Below are positions 4,601 through 52,762 of a stretch of DNA of 64,000 bases, in pieces. A model generated the notes under the pieces. That model had not been told where the DNA came from. It worked only from the letters and a program-made list of their open reading frames with translations, and ran no database searches. How positions within the stretch are numbered: position 1 is the stretch's first letter; each line of letters begins with the position of its first letter. Source of the stretch: Burkholderiales bacterium (lineage in GTDB: Bacteria > Pseudomonadota > Gammaproteobacteria > Burkholderiales > SG8-41); NCBI GenBank assembly GCA_030683105.1, contig JAUXMZ010000003.1:86703-150702 (forward strand), read 5' to 3'. The position numbers and the translations under genes were made by a program.

Positions 4601-5941
4601 ATGAAAGTGCGTACCGACATGCCCAAGAAAAAAGCCGTATCGCTCCGGTCCGCAGTGACCCCGCTGCTTCCCGTGACCATACAGCCCGGTGACATCCGTT
4701 ACGCACCGGGGGTACGGGCCGGGCGCTGGGTGTTCGCCACCGGCCACAAGGGCACGGCGGACTTTATCAGCGGCATGGCACCCGACGTGACCAACGAAGC
4801 GGCGCCACGGCACAGCGTACCCAGGTTCAAAAAAGAGGCGCGGCGCATCTTCGCCAATTTCGCCAAAGTGCTGAAGGCCGGCGGCGCCGACCGCAAGCAC
4901 GTCGTACGCGTGGACCAGTACTACACCGGTGGCCATGTCGTCGATGCTTATCATGAAGTGCGGCGTGAGTTTTTCGCCGGCCATATCCCGCCCAGCACGT
5001 CCAACCTGCACCAGCGTTTTTTGCTCACCGGTCAGGATATGGAAGTGCAGTTGATGGCGGTGGTGCCGGGCAAGGGATTTGACGTGGTGCAGCATCGCCC
5101 GGCGAATCTGCCGGTGCACGCCTCCTCAGGCTATAGTCCGGTGCTGACCTGCGGCGACTATGTGTTTGTCGCCGGGCAGACCTCGGAGGCGCTGAAAACC
5201 GAAGAGGGTCCGCTCGACCCGGCGGCACGCATGCCCGCCGGGCATCTGTGGAAAGGCACGCCGATCAAGCTCGAGACCGAATTCGTGATCGAGCGCAAGA
5301 TGAAGCCCGCCCTCGCTACCATCGGCAATACGCTTGCCGATGTAGTGAAGGCGCAGGTCTACCTGCGCGACGTTAACGACATCCCGGCCTTCAACGAGGT
5401 ATGGGCGAAGCACTTCAGGAAAGCGCCGCCCGCGACCACCATCATCACCACCTCGACGCCCGGCTTCATTTGCGAACAAGGCCGCATCGAGATCAATATC
5501 ATCAGCGTGCGCCGCGGTGGACGCACCAAAAAACAGGTCATCGACGCCGGCGTGCCCACGGCATACGATGGCCACGTGCAGGCGATCCGCGCCGGCGACC
5601 TGCTGTTTCTGTCGGGACTGATGGCGGTTGAAGCTGGTGGCGCGCTCGCGCCGCAAACGCGCATCGATCCGCGCCAGCCGCACTTCGGAAGTGCAGCGCA
5701 GTTGCAGATGGAGCACATGCTGGCGCAAGCCGAACGCATCTGTCGCAAGGCCGGGACGACACTTGCCAATGCGGTGCGCGTGCAGCAGTTTCACACTGAT
5801 CTCGCCGATTTCAACGGCGCATATCAGGTGTGGCAACAGCATTTGCCCGGCCAGCACCTGCCGTTTTCGGCGATAGAAGTGCCGGCGCTCGGCGTGCCGG
5901 GCGCCGTGGTGATGCTCGATCTATGGGTGTATGTGCCCTAG
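4601..5941 (+). CDS. RidA/YjgF/L-PSP family protein with three tandem RidA-like domains
   Basis: 446 aa; three internal repeats each with a G..VF..G-type motif (RWVFATGHKG, DYVFVAGQTS, DLLFLSGLMA) and a hydrophobic beta-strand ending (MEVQLMAVVP, IEINIISVRR, VMLDLWVYVP); start could also be ATG 4619. Confidence 0.75.
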   Translation: MKVRTDMPKKKAVSLRSAVTPLLPVTIQPGDIRYAPGVRAGRWVFATGHKGTADFISGMAPDVTNEAAPRHSVPRFKKEARRIFANFAKVLKAGGADRKHVVRVDQYYTGGHVVDAYHEVRREFFAGHIPPSTSNLHQRFLLTGQDMEVQLMAVVPGKGFDVVQHRPANLPVHASSGYSPVLTCGDYVFVAGQTSEALKTEEGPLDPAARMPAGHLWKGTPIKLETEFVIERKMKPALATIGNTLADVVKAQVYLRDVNDIPAFNEVWAKHFRKAPPATTIITTSTPGFICEQGRIEINIISVRRGGRTKKQVIDAGVPTAYDGHVQAIRAGDLLFLSGLMAVEAGGALAPQTRIDPRQPHFGSAAQLQMEHMLAQAERICRKAGTTLANAVRVQQFHTDLADFNGAYQVWQQHLPGQHLPFSAIEVPALGVPGAVVMLDLWVYVP

Positions 5942-9846: not shown

Positions 9847-11148
9847 ATGGCCCGCTACCTCAAGCAGGGCATATCCACCGCCGCCGCCGAGGCCGCCGAT
9901 CTCAAGGTGCGGCAAACCGTCGAGGGCATACTCGCCGACATTGCCAAACGCGGTGATGCGGCGGTGCGCGAGCTCTCGCAGCAATACGACAATTGGTCGC
10001 CGCCTGCCTTCCGCCTGAACCCGGAGCAGATCGCGGCAATCGTCGCCCGGGTTCCGCCCGAGACCATTGCGGACATCACGTTTGCGCAGCTGCAGATCCG
10101 CAATTTCGCCCAGGCGCAGCGGGCTGCCTTGCGCGACATCGAAATCGAGACGCTGCCGGGCGTGATCCTCGGTCACAAGAACATACCGGTGAGCAGCGTC
10201 GGCTGCTACGTGCCGGGCGGGCGCTATCCGATGGTCGCATCGGCGCACATGAGCATAGTCACCGCCAAGGTTGCCGGCGTGCCGCGCATCATCGCCTGCA
10301 CTCCGCCCAACGAAGGCGAGCCGCATCCGGCCACCATCGCCGCCATGCATCTCGCCGGCGCTGACGAAATCCACGTGCTGGGCGGGGTGCAGGCCGTCGC
10401 CGCGATGGCGCTCGGCACCGAGTCGATCGCGCCGGTCGACATGCTGGTCGGACCCGGCAACGCGTATGTCGCCGAGGCCAAGCGGCAGCTGTACGGCCGC
10501 GTTGGCATCGATTTGTTCGCCGGCCCGACCGAGATTCTGATCGTGGCCGACGAGACCGCAGACGTGGTGATGGTGGCCGTCGATCTGCTGGGACAGGCCG
10601 AACACGGCCCGACTTCGCCGGCTATCCTGATTACCACATCGAGCCAGCTTGCCGAGCAGCTTCCGGAAGAGATCGAGCGCCAGTTGAAGGTGCTGCCGAC
10701 CGCTGATGTGGCGTCGCAGGCGTGGCGGGATTATGGGCAGATCATACTGGTCGACAGTCTAGATGAGGCCGTTGTCGAAGCCGACCGGTGCGCCGCGGAG
10801 CACGTCGAGATCCTGACCCGCGAGCCGCGCTTTTTTCTGGAACGCATGCGCAATTACGGCGCCATGTTCCTCGGTCCGGAAACCAACGTTGCGTATGGCG
10901 ACAAGGTGATCGGCACCAACCATACGCTGCCGACCCAGGGCGCGGCGCGTTATACGGGCGGCCTGTGGGTCGGCAAGTTCCTCAAGACCGTCACCTACCA
11001 GGAGTGCACACCCGAAGCCAGCGTCATGGTGGGCGACTACTGTTCGCGCCTGTGCGCGATCGAACGGTTCTGGGGGCACAAGGAACAGGCCGATCTGAGG
11101 CTGCGGATGTACGGCGGCCGGAAGGTGGGGTTACATGGGCCGAAGTAA
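9847..11148 (+). CDS. histidinol dehydrogenase family (HisD-like) paralogue
   Basis: 433 aa; HisD-like sequence throughout ([32 protein letters not shown] region); starts 2 nt after the cyclase-family stop, in a non-histidine context. Confidence 0.8.
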
Positions 11149-11151
11149 CTT

Positions 11152-11186
11152 GTTCAAGGTTCCAAGTTCAAGGTTCCAAGTTCAAC
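11152..11186. repeat. heptamer tandem array GTTCAAG/GTTCCAA x5
   Basis: gttcaag gttccaa gttcaag gttccaa gttcaac; begins 3 nt after the HisD-like stop. Confidence 0.9.
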
Positions 11187-11287
11187 GCTAACGAGCCACG
11201 AACCATGCCGCAAAGCAAATACCCGGAGGGTACGACCCACGACCCACTAGCCACGTTTTTTATTCATGAAACTTCTGCGGATCCCCA

Positions 11288-11632
11288 TTGAATACTGAAA
11301 CACCAGAATCCGACCGCAAGGCGCAGATCGATGCGCTGCTTCTCAAACTCCCGGGCGTCAGCGCACGAAAAATAAACAGCCTTGACGCCTACTTCGTCAA
11401 TGACAAGATGTTCGCCTGCATCAGCGGCAGCGGCGTCGGGCTGCGACTGCCCGCCGCCACCGCGACCGATCTGCAGTTCTCGAGGGACAACGTCGTCCCG
11501 TTTCAGCCCGGCGGTATGGCGAGTTCGAGGGAATGGGTACAGATCGACCGCGCCGATGCGACCGAGTACGGGAAGGATCTCGAGTTGTTTCAGGCCTCGC
11601 TCGAGTTCGTGAAAGCCGCACGGAGCCGTTAG
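11288..11632 (+). CDS. small protein, TfoX N-terminal-domain-like (tentative)
   Basis: 114-aa ORF; the central ..YFVNDKMFACISGSGVGLRLP.. pattern resembles TfoX_N/YjbR-like proteins; assigned from memory only. Confidence 0.45.
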   Translation: MNTETPESDRKAQIDALLLKLPGVSARKINSLDAYFVNDKMFACISGSGVGLRLPAATATDLQFSRDNVVPFQPGGMASSREWVQIDRADATEYGKDLELFQASLEFVKAARSR

Positions 11633-11635
11633 GCT

Positions 11636-11783
11636 GGTTGTTCGTGGTTCGTTGCTCGTTGATCGTAGAATCCTAGCCTCTAACCACTTCCGAATCACCA
11701 ATCACTATTCACGAGTCACGAGCAACGAATCACGAATCACGAATCACGAACCACGAACCACGAACCACGATCCACGTTCAACG
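11636..11783. repeat. paired inverted heptamer arrays (GTTCGTG-type, then CACGAAT/CACGAAC-type)
   Basis: 11636-11669 ggttgttcgtggttcgttgctcgttgatcg, then 11693-11783 aatcaccaatcac..cacgaatcacgaatcacgaatcacgaaccacgaaccacgaacc; the two arms are complementary, so a long imperfect hairpin is possible; fills the whole gap between two + strand genes. Confidence 0.85.
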
Positions 11784-11797
11784 ATTTAAAGCCAGGG

Positions 11798-12436
11798 ATG
11801 ACTATGAGTAATCCAAAAAATGAAACCAGTGCGGCGGACCCTCGCCGCTTCAGGCTGATCCCGCTCGATCAGCTCACACCCGAACAACTCACACTGTCCG
11901 ACGCGATAAAATCCGGTCCGCGCGCCAAGCTCAAGAGTTCGGGCGCGTCCAAGCCGGGACCGCTCGGCGGGCCGTTCAACGTCTGGCTGCGCAGTCCGGG
12001 CATCGGCGACCTGGTGCAACGGCTTGGCGAAGAGATCCGTTTCCGCAGTTCGCTGCCGCCCAAACTCAACGAGCTGGCGATCTTGATCACGGCGCGCCAC
12101 TGGACTTCACAATACGAATGGTTCGCCCATCACAAGCTGGCACTGGAGGGCGGGCTGGCCCCGGCGCTTGCGCAGGCGATTGCGCAAGGCCGTTGCCCGG
12201 CACAGATGGGCGATGACGAAGCGATCGTCTACGATTTCTCGTGCGAGCTGCACGAGAATAAAGAAGTCAGCGATGCCACCTATCAGGCCGCGCTGGACCG
12301 CTTCGGCGAGCGCGGCGTAGTCGACCTCATCTCGGTAAACGGCTTTTACTCGCTGGTGTCGATGTGCCTGAACGTCGACCGTACGCCGCTGCCGGAGGGG
12401 GTGACGCCCCCGCTACCGCCGCTCGGTGAGCGGTGA
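11798..12436 (+). CDS. carboxymuconolactone decarboxylase (AhpD-like) family protein
   Basis: 212 aa; ELAILITARHWTSQYEWFAHH pattern typical of CMD-family proteins. Confidence 0.75.
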   Translation: MTMSNPKNETSAADPRRFRLIPLDQLTPEQLTLSDAIKSGPRAKLKSSGASKPGPLGGPFNVWLRSPGIGDLVQRLGEEIRFRSSLPPKLNELAILITARHWTSQYEWFAHHKLALEGGLAPALAQAIAQGRCPAQMGDDEAIVYDFSCELHENKEVSDATYQAALDRFGERGVVDLISVNGFYSLVSMCLNVDRTPLPEGVTPPLPPLGER

Positions 12437-12550
12437 GCGTTCAAGGTTCGTTGTTCGTGATTGGTGATTGGTGATTGGTGATTGGTGATTGGTGATTGGT
12501 GGTTCGTAAACGGTGAGAGGCTAGAGTTCAACGTTCAACGATTAACGAGC
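12437..12550. repeat. heptamer array region, core GTGATTG x6 (12457-12498)
   Basis: Starts directly after the TGA stop at 12434-12436; six perfect GTGATTG units flanked by GTTCGTT/GTTCAAC-type units. Confidence 0.9.
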
Positions 12551-12689
12551 CATTTTTTTCAATAATCGCTCGACGGGTACGATCAACGTTCATGGTCCGT
12601 TTCTGCACGATCACCATCCGAGTAAGTTAAACTGACATCTTGAATACTCGCTTTCCCCGCAGGGTCGGGGGAGGCGATTATTTTAAAGG

Positions 12690-13307
12690 ATGTCCCGCAT
12701 GAGGCTGCTCGGTTTACTCGAATTTGCAATTGTTTTCATTGGCGCGGTCGGCATGGTAGCCGCCAGTGTCTTCTACCTGCCCAATGGAGTTCACCTCGGC
12801 CTCTTCCTCGTCGGCGCCGGCATCGCGCTAGGCGGCCTGGAGTCGATTTTCACGCGCGGGATCAGCTTTCGCGTCTCGACTCTCAGCACCGATCATTACG
12901 CCGGCACGCCCGCGCTCATCTGGGGATCGACGATTTTGCTCGTCGGCGCGACACTCATCGCCTGCGCTTATCTCATGGAACAAGGGTTATGGCGAACGAC
13001 AGTTGTTTACGTGATGCGCCGCCCCGGCGGGCTGCTGTCGCTGCTGGGGTTGATCGTAGCCGGCGCCGGCGCACTTATCGTGTTCATCCCGCGCCCGCAC
13101 GGGTTCGTTTGGACGCTGCTGGTGGGGGTGCCGAAGACCATCGTCGGAATCGCGATCGTTATCGCGGGATTGGCGGCGGTCTGCCTCGGGTTGTGGGAAG
13201 CAATCGATCCGCTGTCGTTCACCCGTGTTATCAAGAGCGCGTTGGCACAGGCCGGCTTGCCGACTTACGAGCACTACTGGCGGCGCATGCTGTCAGCGCT
13301 GCTTTGA
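12690..13307 (+). CDS. hypothetical integral membrane protein
   Basis: 205-aa ORF with about 5-6 hydrophobic helices; no family recognised. Confidence 0.55.
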   Translation: MSRMRLLGLLEFAIVFIGAVGMVAASVFYLPNGVHLGLFLVGAGIALGGLESIFTRGISFRVSTLSTDHYAGTPALIWGSTILLVGATLIACAYLMEQGLWRTTVVYVMRRPGGLLSLLGLIVAGAGALIVFIPRPHGFVWTLLVGVPKTIVGIAIVIAGLAAVCLGLWEAIDPLSFTRVIKSALAQAGLPTYEHYWRRMLSALL

Positions 13308-14877: not shown

Positions 14878-15023
14878 CTTGTGAGCCTACAAGTAACGGG
14901 ACGAGTGGGTTTTTTCCCAATATTTCAGCACGATGGGACGATACAGGGAATGCAGCGCCGACACAAGACAGGGCCCCGCACGGGTATGGCATCGGCCTTT
15001 ATATCTGGCTTATTCGGGGATGG

Positions 15024-15098
15024 GGTCAAGGTTCAGAGTTCAAGGTTCCGGGTTCAACAACAGGTTCCAGGTTCAAGGTTCAAGGTTCAAAATTCAAA
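15024..15098. repeat. heptamer array GTTCAAG-type (about 10 units, one 5-nt interruption)
   Basis: ggtcaag gttcaga gttcaag gttccgg gttcaac aacag gttccag gttcaag gttcaag gttcaaa attcaaa. Confidence 0.85.
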
Positions 15099-15220
15099 GT
15101 GCAGGTCGGAGTCGGTTCTCCCTGACACAATCGGCTGCGGGCCGGCTGAATCTGTTCATGGTGCCGGTTGCTTGTCGTACAGTCATGGGTAAAATCATGC
15201 TGACTTCAATCTGACCACAC

Positions 15221-15493
15221 ATGAAAACCATCTCTTATGCTTTCTTCGTGACCGAGGCCGAGTATCCCAGCCTGCAAGCCGCCTGCCCCGGTGATTTTCC
15301 GCCATCCTATGCGGAATTTTGCGCCAGCGTGGAGCGGAGCATTCGGGAGATGGCTGACACCGTCGCCCTCGAAAAAGTCTACGTTCGCGTCGATGAATTC
15401 CTCGCATGGTGTGCCGAAGCCAGCCTCAGGCCCAACAACATCAGCCGCACCAGATATGCCATCGTGATCGGCAACCCCTGGGCTGACTCCTAA
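15221..15493 (+). CDS. hypothetical protein (90 aa)
   Basis: ORF with host-like codon bias; no family recognised; its TAA stop overlaps the start of a heptamer array. Confidence 0.45.
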   Translation: MKTISYAFFVTEAEYPSLQAACPGDFPPSYAEFCASVERSIREMADTVALEKVYVRVDEFLAWCAEASLRPNNISRTRYAIVIGNPWADS

Positions 15494-15527
15494 TTGGTGA
15501 TTGGTGATTGGTGATTGGTGATTAATA
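15493..15527. repeat. heptamer array ATTGGTG x4 + ATTAATA
   Basis: Direct reading; overlaps the stop codon of the preceding ORF. Confidence 0.9.
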
Positions 15528-15665
15528 CCCCTCAAACGTACCCATCGCGCTGATTCATTTATTTTGCTGCGCCGCTCACCGATCCGGCGATCCGGGCGTG
15601 ATATAAAGAGCAAGGCCTTATAATCAGGACATTAATTGTCAGATTCTTAACCGCTCGAGGGTGAG

Positions 15666-16637
15666 ATGATACGCACAATCTTGTTCAGCCCCTCCACCGG
15701 ATCGATCAAGACCGGAAGCGACGATCTGCTGGAAGCGTGGCAGCGCGAACCCGATTCGCTGCTGTGGGCCGACTTCGCCGACCACGAACCGCAGTCGGAG
15801 GAGCAGGTCATGGTTTCGGGTTTCGGCCTGCATCCCCTCGCCATCCACGACGCGCAACGGGACCGGCACCCGCCCAAGATCGAGGCGTTTGCCGATAACG
15901 TCTTCATCCTCCTGAAAGGACTGGGCACGGTCTCGGACGAATTCGAGTTCGGCACCATCCAGCTCGCACTGTTCATCGGCCAGCGCTTCCTGGTCACGCG
16001 CCACTCCGTCCATTCCCGCAGCATCGACATGCTGCGTGCGGAAGCCGAGCAAGGCAGGTCGCTGCTTGCCAGCGGACCCGATGCGCTTGCTCTGCGGTTG
16101 TGCCGGATCATGGCTGACCGCTACACGAAAAAACTGCTCGCGCTCGAGCCACGGCTCGACGACATCGAGCGCGAGATTGTCGAGCACCCCGACGATTCCA
16201 TGCTTACCGAGCTGATCGGCTACAAGACCGACCTCAGAAAGTTCCGGCGCGTCCTCGTCTATCATGTCCAGGTGTTTTCGGAGCTTGCGAAGAATCCGCC
16301 GCCGCAGGTGAGGCCAGAGCGCGTGCACGAGATCAGGGACGTCTACGAGCATCAGGAGCGGGCGAGCAGCCTCGCCTCCTTGTACTACGAGGTTTCCTCT
16401 GATCTGATCGAAGGCTATATCTCGGTCGCCTCGCACCGCCTGAACAACATCATCAGGATACTCACCATCATCACCGCCATCTTCGTGCCGCTGACCTTTC
16501 TCGCCGGGATCTACGGCATGAATTTCGAGAATATGCCCGAGTTGAAATCGCAGACGGGATATTTTGTTCTGCTGGGGATCATGGGCGCTATCGCCGCCAT
16601 CCTGGTGTTGTTGTTCCGCCGGAACCGATGGCTGTGA
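15666..16637 (+). CDS. corA: CorA-family divalent metal ion transporter
   Basis: 323 aa; YGMNFENMPE signature (GMN motif) before the last TM helix, two C-terminal TM helices. Confidence 0.85.
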   Translation: MIRTILFSPSTGSIKTGSDDLLEAWQREPDSLLWADFADHEPQSEEQVMVSGFGLHPLAIHDAQRDRHPPKIEAFADNVFILLKGLGTVSDEFEFGTIQLALFIGQRFLVTRHSVHSRSIDMLRAEAEQGRSLLASGPDALALRLCRIMADRYTKKLLALEPRLDDIEREIVEHPDDSMLTELIGYKTDLRKFRRVLVYHVQVFSELAKNPPPQVRPERVHEIRDVYEHQERASSLASLYYEVSSDLIEGYISVASHRLNNIIRILTIITAIFVPLTFLAGIYGMNFENMPELKSQTGYFVLLGIMGAIAAILVLLFRRNRWL

Positions 16638-16833
16638 GAACCCCGACTCGGGGCGGGCCGCGGGGTAGGCTGGCAGCATAGCGCCTGCCGCAGTTCCACG
16701 AGTTTCTTCTTGTTGAGTTTGGCCATGTTGGTAGTGGTGGCCGGTGGTCTCGGCGGTCGGACTATAATTGGCATGCTCAGCCACGGGCAAGATGCAGGAC
16801 CGTCGCGTTTTCAACTCTCATGAGGGAACGCAC

Positions 16834-17412
16834 ATGACTTATCTAATCCTCGGTCTCATTATCTTCATTGGGGCGCATTCGGTCCGCATCTTTGCGGAGG
16901 ACTGGCGCACGCGCGCGATCGCCCGCGTGGGGCCGAATTCCTGGAAGGGTGTTTATTCGCTGGTCTCGATTGCGGGGTTCGTGCTGCTCGTCTGGGGTTA
17001 CGGCCAGGCGCGTCAGGCGGGTGGCGTGCTTTACGATCCGCCCTTGTTCATGCGCCATATCACGATGCTGCTCACGCTGATTTCTTTCGTGCTGATCGCA
17101 GCGGCCAGGGTGCCTGGCAATCACATCAAGGCGGCGGTCGGGCATCCAATGGTCGCGGGCGTGAAGCTGTGGGCGTTTGCGCACCTGCTGTCCAATGGCA
17201 GCATGGCCGACGTGATTCTGTTTGGCGCGTTCCTGGCCTGGGCCGTCGTGGATTTCATCGTCTCGCGCAAGCGTGATCGCGCTGCGGGCGCGCGTTATCC
17301 GGCGGGCGGCGGCGCACGCACTGCGGTAACGGTGGTCGCCGGGGCTGCCGCGTGGGTGGTGTTCGCGTTCTGGGCGCACCGCTGGCTGATTGGGGTGGGG
17401 CCGTTTGGGTAG
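16834..17412 (+). CDS. NnrU family membrane protein
   Basis: Start moved to the internal ATG (MTYLILGLIIFIGAHSVRIF..), a typical NnrU N-terminus; multi-TM. Confidence 0.75.
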   Translation: MTYLILGLIIFIGAHSVRIFAEDWRTRAIARVGPNSWKGVYSLVSIAGFVLLVWGYGQARQAGGVLYDPPLFMRHITMLLTLISFVLIAAARVPGNHIKAAVGHPMVAGVKLWAFAHLLSNGSMADVILFGAFLAWAVVDFIVSRKRDRAAGARYPAGGGARTAVTVVAGAAAWVVFAFWAHRWLIGVGPFG

Positions 17413-17420
17413 CAAGGCGA

Positions 17421-17539
17421 GTTCAAGGTTCAAAGTTCAAGGTTCAAAGTTCAAAGTTCAAAGTTCAAGGTTCAAGGTTCAAGGTTCAAGGTTCAAGGCT
17501 CAAGGCTCAAGGCTTAAGGCTCAAGGCTCAAGGCTCACT
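17421..17539. repeat. heptamer array, 17 units (GTTCAAG/GTTCAAA then GCTCAAG variants)
   Basis: Largest array in the window; begins 8 nt after the NnrU TAG stop; the apparent ORFs with GSKFKVQ repeats are artefacts of this array. Confidence 0.95.
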
Positions 17540-17594
17540 AGGGGAGTGCCTGGTTTAGAATCGGTGAACCGCGGGATAACCAACAAGAGGAGTC

Positions 17595-18011
17595 ATGATG
17601 AAACAAGAATCCATCGCGGGTAGCTGTTTGTGTGGATCGGTCCGTTTTGAAATCAAGCCGCCGTTTTCGCTGTTCAAGTATTGCCATTGCAGCCGCTGCC
17701 AGAAAACAACCGGCACCGGGCATGCGGCGAACATATTTCTGCCGACGGGCCAGTTCGCCTGGCTGTCCGGCGAATCGCTGATCCGCCATTTCGATCTGCC
17801 GGGCGCCAAGCGCTTTGCAGTGAACTTCTGCACGCAGTGCGGCACGCGCGTGCCGCACCAGGTTACGGGAACGGAAAATATGCTGGTGCCGGCGGGCACC
17901 CTCGACGGGGATCCGGAGATGCTCCCGGACGGCAGCATTTTCTGGGCATCCAAAGCGCCGTGGTTCGTCGAAACGCCGGCGATACCGAAATTCGACGAAT
18001 ACGGCAAATAA
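17595..18011 (+). CDS. GFA family protein (CENP-V/glutathione-dependent formaldehyde-activating enzyme fold)
   Basis: GSCLCGSVRF .. CHCSRCQK .. FCTQCG zinc-binding cysteine pattern; AGAGGAG SD. Confidence 0.85.
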   Translation: MMKQESIAGSCLCGSVRFEIKPPFSLFKYCHCSRCQKTTGTGHAANIFLPTGQFAWLSGESLIRHFDLPGAKRFAVNFCTQCGTRVPHQVTGTENMLVPAGTLDGDPEMLPDGSIFWASKAPWFVETPAIPKFDEYGK

Positions 18012-18027
18012 TTTAATTGGAGGCAGG

Positions 18028-18951
18028 ATGAAAGCAGCGTACTTCATGAAAAACGGCGGGCCGGAGGTGATGCAGTATGGCGACGTTAAGGAACCCGTTG
18101 CCGGGCCCGGCCAGGTGCTGATCGATGTTCATGCGGCCAGTGTCAACGGGGCCGACTGGAAGGTGCGTGCCGGGCATTACGCGCCAATCACCGATTTTCC
18201 GTACATACCGGGGCGAGATTTCTCCGGCGTCGTCAGTGCGCTTGGCGCCGGCGTGCCGGAGTTTGCAGTCGGCGATGCGGTGTTCGGGGTCTGCGATGTC
18301 GGGCAGGAAGCGGCGTATGCGGAGAAAGTCGCCATCAAGTCGGCTCTCGTGGCGAGCAAGCCGGACAGCCTGTCGCACGCGGAGTGCGCGGCGCTGGCGC
18401 TGATCGGGATCACCGCATTGTGCTCGGTCGAGGACACGCTGCAACTGAAGTCTGGTGAAACCATACTGATCCAGGGTGGCGCGGGCGGGGTCGCCAGTTT
18501 CGCGATACAGGTCGCCAAGCATATCGGCGCCCGCGTGATCACGACGGCGAGCGCGGCGAATCATGACTACCTGCGCAGTCTCGGCGCCGACCAGATCATC
18601 GACTACAACAAGCAGGACTTCACGAAAGAGGTGTCAGGCTGCGACGCGGTGTTCGATACTGTCGGCGGCGAGGTTGCAAAGCGCGCATTCGGCGTGTTGC
18701 GAGCTGGCGGGCGCGCGGCGTTCATTGCCTCGGGGAACGCCGCGCCGGTCTCGCCGCGCGCTGATGTCGCATCGCTGCGCCCGAAGGTCGGGCGTGACCG
18801 CGCACATCTCGAGCGGATCGTCGCTCTGGTCGCCGGCGGCGCTGTCCGCGTTCCGGATATCACGCTCTATTCGTTATCGGAAGCACGAGCGGCCCACGTG
18901 GTGAGCGAAGGGCGCCACCTGCGCGGAAAACTGGTCTTCAAGGTGCGCTGA
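18028..18951 (+). CDS. NADPH:quinone oxidoreductase-like medium-chain dehydrogenase/reductase
   Basis: 307 aa; GETILIQGGAGGVASFAIQ cofactor motif and MDR/zeta-crystallin-like sequence. Confidence 0.85.
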   Translation: MKAAYFMKNGGPEVMQYGDVKEPVAGPGQVLIDVHAASVNGADWKVRAGHYAPITDFPYIPGRDFSGVVSALGAGVPEFAVGDAVFGVCDVGQEAAYAEKVAIKSALVASKPDSLSHAECAALALIGITALCSVEDTLQLKSGETILIQGGAGGVASFAIQVAKHIGARVITTASAANHDYLRSLGADQIIDYNKQDFTKEVSGCDAVFDTVGGEVAKRAFGVLRAGGRAAFIASGNAAPVSPRADVASLRPKVGRDRAHLERIVALVAGGAVRVPDITLYSLSEARAAHVVSEGRHLRGKLVFKVR

Positions 18952-30041: not shown

Positions 30042-30125
30042 GGTGTGGTCGCGGTTCCGTGTGATTGATAGAGAGTGAAAAAAACAGCCTGAAGCATCGT
30101 GCGCCTGTCGCTGAGCGGAAAGCAG

Positions 30126-30230
30126 AAAGCCGTAAGCCGTAAGCGGAAGTCTCTAAGGTCTTATTCTGCTCACTGCTCACTGCTCACTGCTCACTGCTCA
30201 CTGCTCACTGCTCACTGCTCACTGCTTACC
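30126..30230. repeat. two heptamer arrays: AAGCCGT x3 (30126-30146) and GCTCACT x8 + 1 degenerate (30168-30230)
   Basis: Direct reading; begins 6 nt after the stop of the LigI-like gene (minus strand reads GTGAGCA); lies inside a putative operon. Confidence 0.95.
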
Positions 30231-30236
30231 GTTGCT

Positions 30237-48176: not shown

Positions 48177-49700
48177 ATGAAACCACAGAATAAAACCGCA
48201 ACACGAACCATTCTTCACAATACCCGCTTGACGGGTACGAATCACGAATCACGAATCACGACACACGACACATCGTTCGCGACCGCGAACGACATCCTGT
48301 TGGCGCCATACGCGCTCGACGGCAGCCGGCTGCAGTCGATATTCGGCCAGATCATGACGCACAGCGTCGATTATGCCGATCTCTATTTTCAGTACAACCG
48401 CAGCGAGTCATGGAGTCTGGAAGAAGGCATCGTCAAGTCCGGCAGCTTCAGCATCGACCAGGGCGTGGGCGTGCGGGCGATCAGCGGCGAGAAGACTGCG
48501 TTCGCCTATTCCGATGACATCAGTTTTGATGCGCTCAATACCGCGGCGCATGCCACCCGCGCCATCGCCCGCCAGGGACGCGGCGGATCGGCGCAGGTGG
48601 AGAAGCGCAACACCGGGCACAATCTGTATCTGCCGCAGGATCCACTGGCAAGCCTTGATGACCAGGACAAGGTGTCGCTGCTGGAACGGTTGGAACGCCA
48701 CGCCCGCGCACTCGACCCGCGCGTAACCCAGGTGATGGCCTTTCTGGCCGGGGAATACGAGGTGGTGCTGGTGGCGCGCAGCGATGGCGTGCTGGCGGCC
48801 GACGTGCGGCCCCTGGTGCGGCTTTCCGTTCAGGTCATCGTCGAGCACGAAGACCGGCGCGAGCAGGGCAGTGCCGGCGGCGGCGGGCGCTTCGATTACG
48901 CTTATTTCACCGATGCCATGCTGCAGGACTACGCCAGGAAAGCAGTGGACCAGGCGCTGATCAATCTCGACGCGCGGCCCGCGCCTGCGGGAACCATGAC
49001 GGTGGTGCTGGGGTCGGGCTGGCCGGGCGTGCTGCTGCATGAGGCGATAGGCCATGGCCTCGAAGGCGATTTCAACCGCAAGGGCACCTCGGCATTCAGC
49101 GGCCGCATCGGCGAGCGCGTCGCCGCACCCGGGGTCACGGTGGTTGACGACGGCACCATGGCACAGCGGCGCGGCTCGCTCAACATCGACGACGAAGGCA
49201 ACCCGACGCAGTGCAATGTGCTGATCGAAAACGGCGTGCTCAGGAGTTACCTGCAGGACAGCCTCAATGCGCGCCTGATGAAAGTGGCGCCCACCGGCAA
49301 CGGACGGCGCGAGTCGTACGCGCATATCCCCATGCCGCGCATGACCAACACCTATATGCTCAACGGCGGCAGCGATCCGCAGGAGATCATCGCCTCGGTC
49401 AAAAACGGCCTGTATGCGGTGAACTTCGGCGGCGGCCAGGTCGATATCACCAGCGGCAAGTTCGTGTTTTCGGCCTCCGAAGCCTACATGATCGAAAACG
49501 GCAAGGTGACCTATCCGGTGAAAGGCGCGACGCTGATCGGCAACGGCCCGGATGCGCTGACCCGGGTGGCGATGATAGGCAACGACATGGCGCTCGATTC
49601 CGGTGTCGGCACGTGCGGCAAGGAAGGCCAGAGCGTGCCGGTGGGCGTCGGGCAACCGACCCTGAGAATCGACGGGTTGACTGTTGGCGGCACTGTCTAG
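48177..49700 (+). CDS. tldD: metalloprotease TldD
   Basis: DYADLYFQ.., [26 protein letters not shown] motifs; the N-terminal ~30 codons are repeat-derived, so the true start is uncertain. Confidence 0.9.
48218..48273. repeat. hairpin motif CAATACCCGCTTGACGGGTAC followed by heptamers GAATCAC x3, GACACAC, GACACAT
   Basis: Motif recurs at 52604-52624 and, degenerate, at 12560-12580; lies inside the 5' end of the tldD ORF. Confidence 0.85.
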
Positions 49701-51635: not shown

Positions 51636-52550
51636 TTGCGCTGTGCAGCGTTGGCCGTGGGGGCGTTGCTGCTGATGCAGAATGTGACCGCGGCGGCGGC
51701 GGTGTCGCTCACCGATGATCGCGGCCGGACACTGGTGCTTGCCGCGCCGGCGCAGCGCGTCGTCACGCTCGCACCCCATCTCGCCGAGATCGTATTTGCC
51801 GCCGGCGCCGGCGGGCGGCTGGCCGGGGTTGCGCGCTTCAGTGATTTTCCTGAAGCCGTCATGCACTTGCCGCAGGTGGGCGACGGTGCGCGCGTCGATC
51901 TGGAGCGCATCATTGCGCTTAAGCCCGATCTCATCCTGGCGTGGCAAAGCGGCAATCAGGCGGCGGATATTGAGCGCCTCGAGAAACTCGGTTTTCCCGT
52001 GTTCGTCACCGAACCCGCGCGCCTGATGGACATTCCGCGCCTGCTGCGGGCAGTCGGTGTGTTGGCCGGCACGCTGCCAGCCGCAGAACAGGTCATTGAT
52101 AAATATATAAATAATATTAAAGAGTTACGAAATTCGTATGGTGGGCACCCAGCGTTGCGCGTGTTCTACGAGATCTGGCACCGTCCGCTGCTGACCGTGA
52201 ACGGCAGTCACATCATCAGCGACGTGCTGGCGTTGTGCGGCGGACGCAACGTGTTCGCCGCCGCACCGGTGCAGACGCCGACGGTGTCCATCGAAGCGGT
52301 GCTGGCGGCACAGCCCGATGTCATAGTCGGTGGCGGCTCTGCGGTCGCGGCAGACGAATTCGCCGCGCAGTGGCGCGCATCCCCGATTCCGGCGTTGCGC
52401 GAACTGCCGGTGTTTTATGTCGATCCCGATACCATCCAGCGGCAGACGCCGCGGATTGTGGAGGGGGCGAGAACGATCTGCGAGGCGCTGGAAAAAGTCA
52501 GGGTTAGCCGCCAAGGCCGCCAAGAAAAAACTGATCGAAACCGCAGATAA
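51636..52550 (+). CDS. cobalamin-binding periplasmic protein (BtuF-like)
   Basis: 304 aa; ..RVVTLAPHLAEIVFAAG....LKPDLILAW.. class III SBP pattern; TTG start is tentative; the last ~15 codons (VSRQGRQEKTDRNRR) are encoded by a repeat element. Confidence 0.7.
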   Translation: MRCAALAVGALLLMQNVTAAAAVSLTDDRGRTLVLAAPAQRVVTLAPHLAEIVFAAGAGGRLAGVARFSDFPEAVMHLPQVGDGARVDLERIIALKPDLILAWQSGNQAADIERLEKLGFPVFVTEPARLMDIPRLLRAVGVLAGTLPAAEQVIDKYINNIKELRNSYGGHPALRVFYEIWHRPLLTVNGSHIISDVLALCGGRNVFAAAPVQTPTVSIEAVLAAQPDVIVGGGSAVAADEFAAQWRASPIPALRELPVFYVDPDTIQRQTPRIVEGARTICEALEKVRVSRQGRQEKTDRNRR

Positions 52551-52762
52551 ACGCGGATACACACAGATAAAGTCAAAAACAATCAGCCACAGAGGATTCA
52601 CTTCAATACCCGCTTGACGGGTACACAGAGGGAATATAAAAAAGTCGAATCACGACTCGCGATTCACGGCATTTCGGAACCGCCAAGGCGCCAAGTCGCC
52701 AAGAAAAACTGATTGAAACCGCAGATGAGCGCCGATGAACGCGGATAGGCATGCAGGGTGTG
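52507..52762. repeat. composite repeat: two direct copies of a CCGCCAAGG..AAACCGCAGAT..CGCGGATA element flanking the TACCCG hairpin motif
   Basis: Copy A 52507-52560, copy B 52679-52762; the CCGCCAAGGCGCCAAG core recurs inverted at 54158-54174, and the GGATAGGC..ATGCAGGGTGTG tail recurs at 54883-54908. Confidence 0.8.

Follow-up and report, generated by a model that had tools for sequence, protein, structure and literature searches.

A gene in the contig JAUXMZ010000003.1, from the metagenome-assembled genome (MAG) of an uncultured Burkholderiales, is bracketed by two arrays of tandem heptamers that are probably diverged, oppositely oriented paralogous copies of a single hairpin-forming intergenic heptamer lattice. 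The stretch that was analysed comprises 64,000 nt of the forward strand of this contig (hereafter the window; positions are window coordinates). The gene itself (11798-12436, plus strand) encodes 212 amino acids (aa) and is placed by the sources in the carboxymuconolactone decarboxylase (CMD) family. What does such a bracket mean? On the reading that we favour, it is a by-product of the architecture of the spacers and says nothing particular about the gene between them.

An earlier note on this DNA had described a 13-nt core, CTAGCCTCTAACC, upstream of the gene (11673-11685, plus strand) and its reverse complement with one mismatch, GGTGAGAGGCTAG, downstream (12512-12524), and both are there. 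So are the AATCACC, CACGAAT (three copies) and CACGAAC (three copies) units of the upstream spacer, the downstream GTGATTG array (6.4 perfect copies at 12457-12501, called with a period of 7 by Tandem Repeats Finder, TRF) and a complementary arm within the upstream spacer itself (about 11637-11669), which pairs with the cytosine-rich array of that spacer as a 33-bp hairpin. The geometry proposed in the note, an inverted repeat of core plus array, is right, but the repeat is much longer than these two parts: arms of 114 nt at 11645-11758 and 12439-12552, 680 nt apart, are complementary at 88 of their 114 positions without a gap (77%), and a gapped alignment extends the similarity to about 11765. 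Moreover, the core is neither a separate nor a unique element. Each spacer is one unbroken 7-nt lattice that keeps a single phase through arm, core and array, and the core consists of two degenerate units, CTAGCCT CTAACCA, in phase with the arrays on either side and located where G/T-rich (G-type) units turn into their C/A-rich (C-type) complements.

The two lattices can be read unit by unit. On the plus strand, the upstream one opens with a G-type left arm (11633-11672; TTGTTCG TGGTTCG TTGCTCG TTGATCG TAGAATC), which pairs with 11708-11738 in the local hairpin, turns at the core (11673-11685; CTAGCCT CTAACC-A) and runs on as a C-type array of about 15 units (11686-11790), namely CTTCCGA ATCACCA ATCACTA TTCACGA GTCACGA GCAACGA, three copies of ATCACGA, three of ACCACGA, TCCACGT and TCAACGA. 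TRF finds 11.4 copies with period 7 in this array (11691-11770), which stops 7 nt short of the start codon. The downstream lattice, read on the minus strand, starts with a distal arm (12525-12552; TGGCTCG TTAATCG TTGAACG TTGAACT), homologous unit for unit to 11645-11672 (21 of 28 positions), and passes through CTAGCCT CTCACCG at the core copy (12512-12524, minus strand, reading CTAGCCTCTCACC; 12 of 13 positions identical to the upstream core). It continues with TTTACGA ACCACCA, five copies of ATCACCA, ATCACGA ACAACGA ACCTTGA ACGCTCA and CCGCTCA. This C-type arm of the inverted copy appears on the plus strand as a G-type array (12424-12511; GGTGAGC twice, GTTCAAG, GTTCGTT, GTTCGTG, six copies of ATTGGTG, GTTCGTA). 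Nine distinct consecutive units stand in the same order in both flanks, which argues for common descent and thus for paralogous inverted copies, and in the less strictly repetitive, non-expanded 62 nt around the core 49 positions match in register.

How exceptional is this likeness? Among all pairs of intergenic spacers in the window, compared in both orientations, the flanks have the top score (103), although two GTTCAAG arrays in direct orientation are essentially tied with them (102). No exact inverted match between the flanks is longer than 13 nt. The core has only two matches in the 64 kb when up to two mismatches are allowed, and at least two such matches were found in 5 of 100 shuffles. 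The structure itself is reproduced by two Logan contigs from run SRR13727541, one of which (L005) holds the upstream spacer, the core and the gene, while the other (L086) extends over the downstream core and T-run as well as the next gene; both match base for base. The C-type array is identical in L005, as are the outer parts of the downstream G-type array in L005 and L086. Each contig ends within the GTGATTG array, where a k-mer assembler would be expected to stop, so that only the copy number of this array (six) lacks independent confirmation.

Heptamer arrays are common in this DNA. Of the periods from 3 to 12, only 7 is enriched in the window, where period-7 arrays occur in about 15 of the 35 intergenic spacers of at least 60 nt and essentially never in open reading frames (ORFs). 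Fifteen arrays were found in the 64 kb, all but one outside the called ORFs, and the exception lies in a 5' end that is probably over-extended. An ACGAATC/CACGACA array (48237-48272) lies within a longest-ORF call (48177-49700) whose true start codon is probably downstream of it, which would make it another C-type array ahead of a start. When arrays lying at most 40 nt past a stop codon or at most 40 nt ahead of a start codon were counted in the window and its relatives, those after stops had more G than C on the sense strand (23:4, p = 3e-4) and those before starts more C than G (11:2, p = 0.02). Arrays often begin within the final codons of the upstream ORF, and many of those counted lie at a distance of zero or less. 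Arrays beside minus-strand genes are mostly flipped, so the polarity follows transcription rather than replication. A C-type array before a gene and a G-type array after it is the rule for arrays in this group of genomes and no mark of the focal gene. The arrays before starts consist of C-type units free of start and stop trinucleotides in 12 of 13 cases, and those after stops contain stop codons in 16 of 27, a 7-nt period placing stops in all three frames within three units; the polarity may be simply selection on translation signals, which is inseparable from base composition. A relation of the G-type units to Shine-Dalgarno sequences (GGTGAT, AAGGAGG and GAAGGA as pieces of AAGGAGGTGATC) was rejected, the resemblance being no more than composition gives (unit permutations, Fisher p = 0.72).

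The elements of the focal spacers recur elsewhere with other units. The layout of G-type arm, loop and C-type arm is also seen at 30042-30236 of the window and in two loci of other MAGs (L068 4747/4799 and L070 8551/8770). At 30042-30236, where the sense strand is the minus strand, a stop codon is followed by nine copies of GTGAGCA, a 20-nt loop and C-type units (CCGCTTA CGGCTTA CGGCTTT CTGCTTT CCGCTCA) unrelated to the focal ones, with a T7 run about 27 nt beyond. A second bracketed gene is found at L068 3707-4735, with complementary arrays on both sides, one of them an AAGGAGG run directly after a stop codon. A divergent spacer at this locus contains AAGGCGA-type units as an inverted pair that is perfect over 32 nt (the two observations concern L068 3544-3685 and 4747-4829). 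In the window, the tfoX-like gene immediately upstream of the CMD gene shows only a weak bracket (16 nt at 94%). A general bracketing of genes by strongly complementary arrays was considered and discarded, as the window has no strong inverted pair spanning a gene apart from the focal one. A survey of 80 loci from other MAGs, each containing a CMD homologue (the L-numbered loci), found dense arrays in L068 and L073, some in L006, L008, L023, L024, L026, L042, L070 and L084 (the last an Acidobacteria MAG) and none in most; such patchiness over related loci points to rapid gain and loss.

Comparison with a relative indicates which came first, the gene or its flanks. The sole syntenic relative (contig CALOEN010000062.1, labelled L003/L008) has the order cyclase, hisD-like gene, 114-aa gene, CMD gene, 202-aa membrane protein gene, GGDEF and EAL, with order and orientation as in the window, proteins 84-98% identical and genic DNA 85-91% identical. 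In the blastn comparison with L008 the alignment is lost over the array-bearing segments (11633-11793 and 12429-12618) and picks up again in the conserved leader of the next gene. Neither spacer of the relative has the core, and the only heptamers there are relics, for instance GTTCGTA AATCGTA immediately behind the upstream stop. The earlier note had looked to synteny for the presence, absence or inversion of the gene; what the relative shows is an unchanged context and orientation of the gene, with neither arrays nor core. The repeats thus came to the gene, and not the gene with the repeats. By these alignments the focal gene is an ancestral, long-term resident of its site, around which the lattices were built or replaced. 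Elsewhere, too, orthologues in the window and L008 either differ in the unit family of their arrays or have no arrays.

A scheme that would account for these observations is as follows. A lattice begins with G/T-rich units, turns via a few degenerate units and ends with complementary C/A-rich units, and because its second half is complementary to its first it folds back on itself. As a quasi-palindrome, it reads G-type and then C-type in either orientation and so obeys the polarity rule both ways. Two neighbouring spacers that hold lattices of one family will consequently place a C-type array before the gene between them and a complementary G-type array after it. Arrays presumably arise and turn over by replication slippage, and the second copy could have come from template switching or gene conversion between complementary arrays flanking the gene. 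After the duplication each copy would have had its own expansions, of ATCACGA/ACCACGA upstream and of ATCACCA downstream. If the lattices have a function, it would be local and at the RNA level. The upstream copy would be at most a stem-loop inside the operon that immediately follows a stop codon; its 33-bp hairpin is predicted at -47.8 kcal/mol (z -2.9), within a range of -46 to -48 for the local folds of this spacer. The downstream copy, as a stem-loop followed by U7, may serve as the terminator of a cyclase-hisD-tfoX-like-CMD transcription unit. The terminator-like hairpin in question (12498-12559, plus strand) has a 10-bp outer stem, 12498-12507/12545-12554, with inner pairs, followed by T7 at 12553-12559, and the local fold is predicted at -17.1 kcal/mol.

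Several points weigh against this explanation. The downstream local fold is no better than those of shuffled sequences (z -0.95), and a scan for consensus terminators, which needs a loop of 3-8 nt, did not call the stem and T7 site. The origin of the second copy by template switching or conversion is inferred, and no intermediate was seen. Of this genome the 64-kb window was searched, and further copies of a dispersed family could lie elsewhere in it. Finally, the lowest predicted energy belongs to a long-range duplex of the two flanks and not to the pair of local hairpins, and this duplex may have a gene-enclosing function.

This last point leads to the main rival. Could the flanks close the CMD cistron into a loop? 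An imperfect duplex of about 115 bp would form in a read-through transcript, and its outcome would be processing by RNase III, as with the stems of 16S and 23S rRNA, or stabilisation or silencing of the mRNA, as with the 5'-3' fold-back of hok. We regard such a functional stem, with either outcome, as unlikely, yet it deserves the most serious hearing among the alternatives. The earlier note had suggested that the flanks could pair in a long transcript, and in silico they do: in the minimum free energy fold of 11625-12565, run as the note proposed, they are paired end to end (-441.7 kcal/mol, against an average of -348 for 20 shuffles; z -14). Pairing between the flanks is also thermodynamically favoured over folding of each by itself, since their co-fold is predicted at -146 kcal/mol and the summed local folds at -73, and a reversed-sequence control gains only -29; this much of the suggestion holds, and its support is computational. 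Most of the duplex lies clear of the ORF, leaving a region of about 11766-11797 before the start codon unpaired and overlapping only the last few codons. The stem presumes that both flanks are on one transcript. A scan for sigma-70 promoters found none in 11100-12800, which is weak negative evidence only, and a common transcript of the CMD gene and the genes upstream is plausible because no sigma-70-like promoter lies between them. The lack of conservation tells against the stem. The only syntenic relative has neither flank, and no covariation can therefore be demonstrated. In the course of transcription the upstream local hairpin would be the first to form, and the flanks are kept apart by 680 nt of RNA that is translated. 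No comparable bracket exists elsewhere in the window. The stems that flank 16S and 23S rRNA and the fold-back of hok are conserved and have been demonstrated experimentally; like them, the CMD flanks are able to pair over hundreds of nucleotides, but here the stem is predicted only and is absent from the one syntenic relative. Searches with Rfam gave no family at E ≤ 1 in this region, except for one irrelevant weak match, and none at gathering score in the whole window.

A bolder form of this idea would make the lattices functional RNA punctuation instead of slippage debris. Through C-type arrays ahead of starts and complementary G-type arrays behind stops, single cistrons of a polycistronic transcript would be closed into long duplex-bounded loops that are cut by RNase III or gate translation. 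It appears highly improbable to us. If it were true, these genomes would have a fast-evolving layer of post-transcriptional control that acts cistron by cistron, of which the CMD gene would be the clearest example.

Is the bracket instead a substrate for recombination at the DNA level? The earlier note had raised inversion or excision by the flanks, and an on/off switch in which they flip or otherwise rearrange the CMD segment would fit the geometry, an inverted repeat of 114 nt at 77% with 680 nt between the arms. Elsewhere, breakpoints of synteny between the window and L008 do adjoin arrays. Efficient recombination by RecA, however, needs roughly 25 nt or more of identity, and with a longest exact match of 13 nt RecA-driven inversion is improbable. 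A scan of six neighbouring genes turned up no recombinase. The MAG, the syntenic relative and both Logan contigs all show the segment in one and the same orientation, and inversion would turn over a complete gene, not a promoter, leaving it antisense to its own operon. None of the features of an invertible switch, namely both orientations, a recombinase nearby (among those six neighbours) and long perfect inverted repeats, was found here, and the proposal is very unlikely to be correct.

The notion of a mobile cassette fares worse still. Under it, the gene and its inverted flanks would be a composite unit, or one bounded by miniature inverted-repeat transposable elements (MITEs), that is moved by a repeat-recognising enzyme. 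A single gene between inverted repeats does look the part, and close CMD homologues occur in different contexts in other MAGs (L001/L002 and L004). The arrays are missing at the gene in L001, L002 and L004, though, and in the syntenic relative the gene occupies the same site in the same orientation without the repeats. A cassette should also recur. The earlier note had asked whether the core pairs around other single genes; no further core, and no further copy of the lattice, was found in the window (up to two mismatches for the core), nor, above chance, in 1.26 Mb of DNA from the relatives, nor in the GTDB representative genomes. For the last, a 20-mer containing the core, TWGAAYYCTAGCCTCTMACC, gave no match in a collection that does not include this MAG. 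The same 20-mer has four matches in JGI metagenomes, all at unrelated loci. Two of these (L088 242-261 and L089 1436-1455) lie inside degenerate C-type arrays of CCCTNAN-type units, that of L089 opposite a GGGATTA-type array, and a 20-mer found within other heptamer arrays fits the view that the core is ordinary array material. No target-site duplication is visible at the outer ends, and none of the six neighbours that were scanned encodes a transposase. Neither dispersed copies of terminal repeats nor a cargo seen only together with its repeats, as expected of MITEs, composite transposons and cassettes, was observed. The cassette is thus largely refuted, and we give it hardly any credence. 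The idea that the flanks are two low-complexity arrays alike by chance, or a product of misassembly at repeats, is the least tenable of all: arrays of related units abound, the direct GTTCAAG pair scores almost as high, a 13-mer with one mismatch is by our own estimate not rare over all spacer pairs and shuffling yields two core matches in 5% of cases, but the order in register of nine differing units, with 49 of 62 positions matching where there was no expansion, and the exact reproduction of both sides by independent Logan contigs refute it.

To which known repeats, then, do the flanks that we take for paralogous lattices belong? Rehm et al. (2015, PMC4692102) described intergenic heptameric repeats of GGGAATC in Xanthomonas and GGGGAYT in Nostoc, with the G-rich strand coding where a repeat lies downstream of an ORF and non-coding where it lies upstream. 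These repeats lie about 28 nt from the upstream ORF, form 70-75 convergent inverted pairs per Xanthomonas genome and vary extensively between close species; no function was found for them (PMC4692102). As cited there, Mrazek et al. (2007) had reported long heptanucleotide simple sequence repeats (SSRs) to be over-represented in bacteria, and short tandemly repeated repetitive (STRR) heptamers are known from the cyanobacteria Calothrix and Anabaena (PMC4692102). The arrays described here share with the Xanthomonas and Nostoc SSRs a period of exactly 7, an almost purely intergenic location near the upstream stop codon at many loci, the strand rule (23:4 and 11:2 here), frequent convergent inverted pairs with stem-loop potential and strong differences in length and sequence between close relatives, the window and its relative being unalignable exactly at the arrays. 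They differ in having many unit families (GTGATTG, GTTCGTG, GTTCAAG, TGAGCAG, AAGCGGT and others) instead of one consensus, in their host, an uncultured Burkholderiales MAG, in joining G-type and C-type arms in one in-phase lattice and in the presence of the whole lattice twice, inverted, around one gene. The G-quadruplex subclass studied by Rehm et al. has tracts of three or more G, whereas none of the focal units (GTGATTG, GTTCGTG, GGTGAGC) goes beyond GG, and with no GGG tracts a quadruplex is not expected; some arrays of the relatives do contain GGG (GGGTGAT, GAGGGAT). Apart from this subclass feature, the focal arrays have the tested defining features of the class of intergenic heptameric SSRs that includes those of Xanthomonas, Nostoc and the STRR.

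Another heptamer family is formed by the intergenic TAACTGA repeats of the Beggiatoaceae, which stand just upstream of start codons and of which a single indirect (inverted) set was reported (MacGregor 2015, PMC4679880). With these and with the STRR the present arrays have in common that they are intergenic tandem heptamers at many loci per genome, patchy in phylogeny and near translation signals. Whereas STRR and TAACTGA repeats use one or a few fixed heptamers, the units here are diverse and stand both after stops and before starts, with opposite strand composition. The likeness to repetitive extragenic palindromic (REP) sequences, bacterial interspersed mosaic elements (BIMEs) and REPINs lies in imperfect palindromes, found in spacers within or after operons in either orientation and able to form stem-loops. 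REP, BIME and REPIN elements of enterobacteria and pseudomonads have a fixed sequence of about 35 nt, occur in hundreds of copies and are mobilised by REP-associated tyrosine transposases (RAYTs); when transcribed, REP and BIME stem-loops can protect the upstream mRNA or aid termination. The CMD flanks, in contrast, are built of tandem heptamers, and in the data searched their sequence is private to two adjacent spacers. They include no conserved multi-copy palindrome, and no RAYT was found, none having been searched for.

The gene within the bracket can be described briefly. Its assignment to the CMD family, made also in the earlier note, is plausible but weak: a protein identical to it and some close homologues carry the family name in the sources, but its score with the Pfam CMD profile (PF02627; residues 68-126) is sub-threshold at 15.6 bits, the gathering cut-off being 23 (E = 0.016). 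A phmmer search of the protein against the PDB gave no match, and a profile search gave faint PDB matches at E of about 0.15 to 2pfx, an uncharacterized peroxidase-related protein, and 3c1l, a putative antioxidant defense protein. The downstream lattice reaches into the ORF, where its GGTGAGC GGTGAGC units (12424-12439) supply the TGA stop and the C-terminal residues (…LGER). At the equivalent position L001 has GGTGACC GGTGAGC, and the C-terminus is the variable part of the alignment of the protein family. A 61-aa ORF with an HQSPITN repeat on the minus strand (12346-12531) merely reflects the heptamer array in translation and is not a gene.

Upstream lies the 114-aa gene (11288-11632, plus strand), called from its ORF and the profile of G+C at third codon positions and having sub-threshold TfoX_N/YjbR-like Pfam matches. 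Its stop codon directly adjoins the upstream spacer, and its ortholog in the syntenic relative is 89% identical in aa sequence. Downstream, the conserved 3' part of the spacer (12618-12689, plus strand) is the leader of the next gene and lies outside the repeat element, at the point where the alignment with L008 resumes. It holds a conserved G+C-rich hairpin (12648-12677), TCGCTTTCCCCGCAGGGTCGGGGGAGGCGA followed by TTATTTT, located 12 nt 5' of the start of the 202/205-aa membrane protein gene, with an apparent counterpart in the syntenic relative (L003, about 4855-4885); possibly it acts as a leader or resembles an attenuator. An exact-protein look-up for closer relatives matched the 202-aa version of the next gene and neither the 205-aa version nor the 114-aa gene. 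Further along, the collinearity of window 15019-18947 with L008 8497-12155 is broken, the ortholog of gene 16768-17412 being transposed, and several block ends adjoin heptamer arrays (window 17420-17543; L008 11398-11490 and 10178-10305). That gene was considered as an array-bounded cassette, and no clear cassette of this kind was seen. A different repeat family occupies 52507-52746, where two direct copies of about 70 nt carry 8-9-mer runs of GCCGCCAAG, then AAAAACTGAT(C/T)GAAACCGCAGAT, and 10-mer runs of CGCAGATAAA; in the relative, GCCGCCAAG runs form a 45-nt inverted pair (L008 9275-9453; L003 8450-8477).

The locus adds to the known class of intergenic heptameric repeats. It offers a clear record of how arrays evolve in an uncultured Burkholderiales lineage, two paralogues that can be aligned unit by unit and have each undergone expansions of their own. 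It also replicates the polarity rule independently, and since many unrelated units obey it here, strand composition or position would seem to matter more than the motif. The two arrays make a concrete, testable case in which a cistron could be enclosed in an RNA duplex of about 115 bp. For annotation the lesson is a warning, namely that inverted repeats around a gene in genomes of this kind do not indicate mobility.

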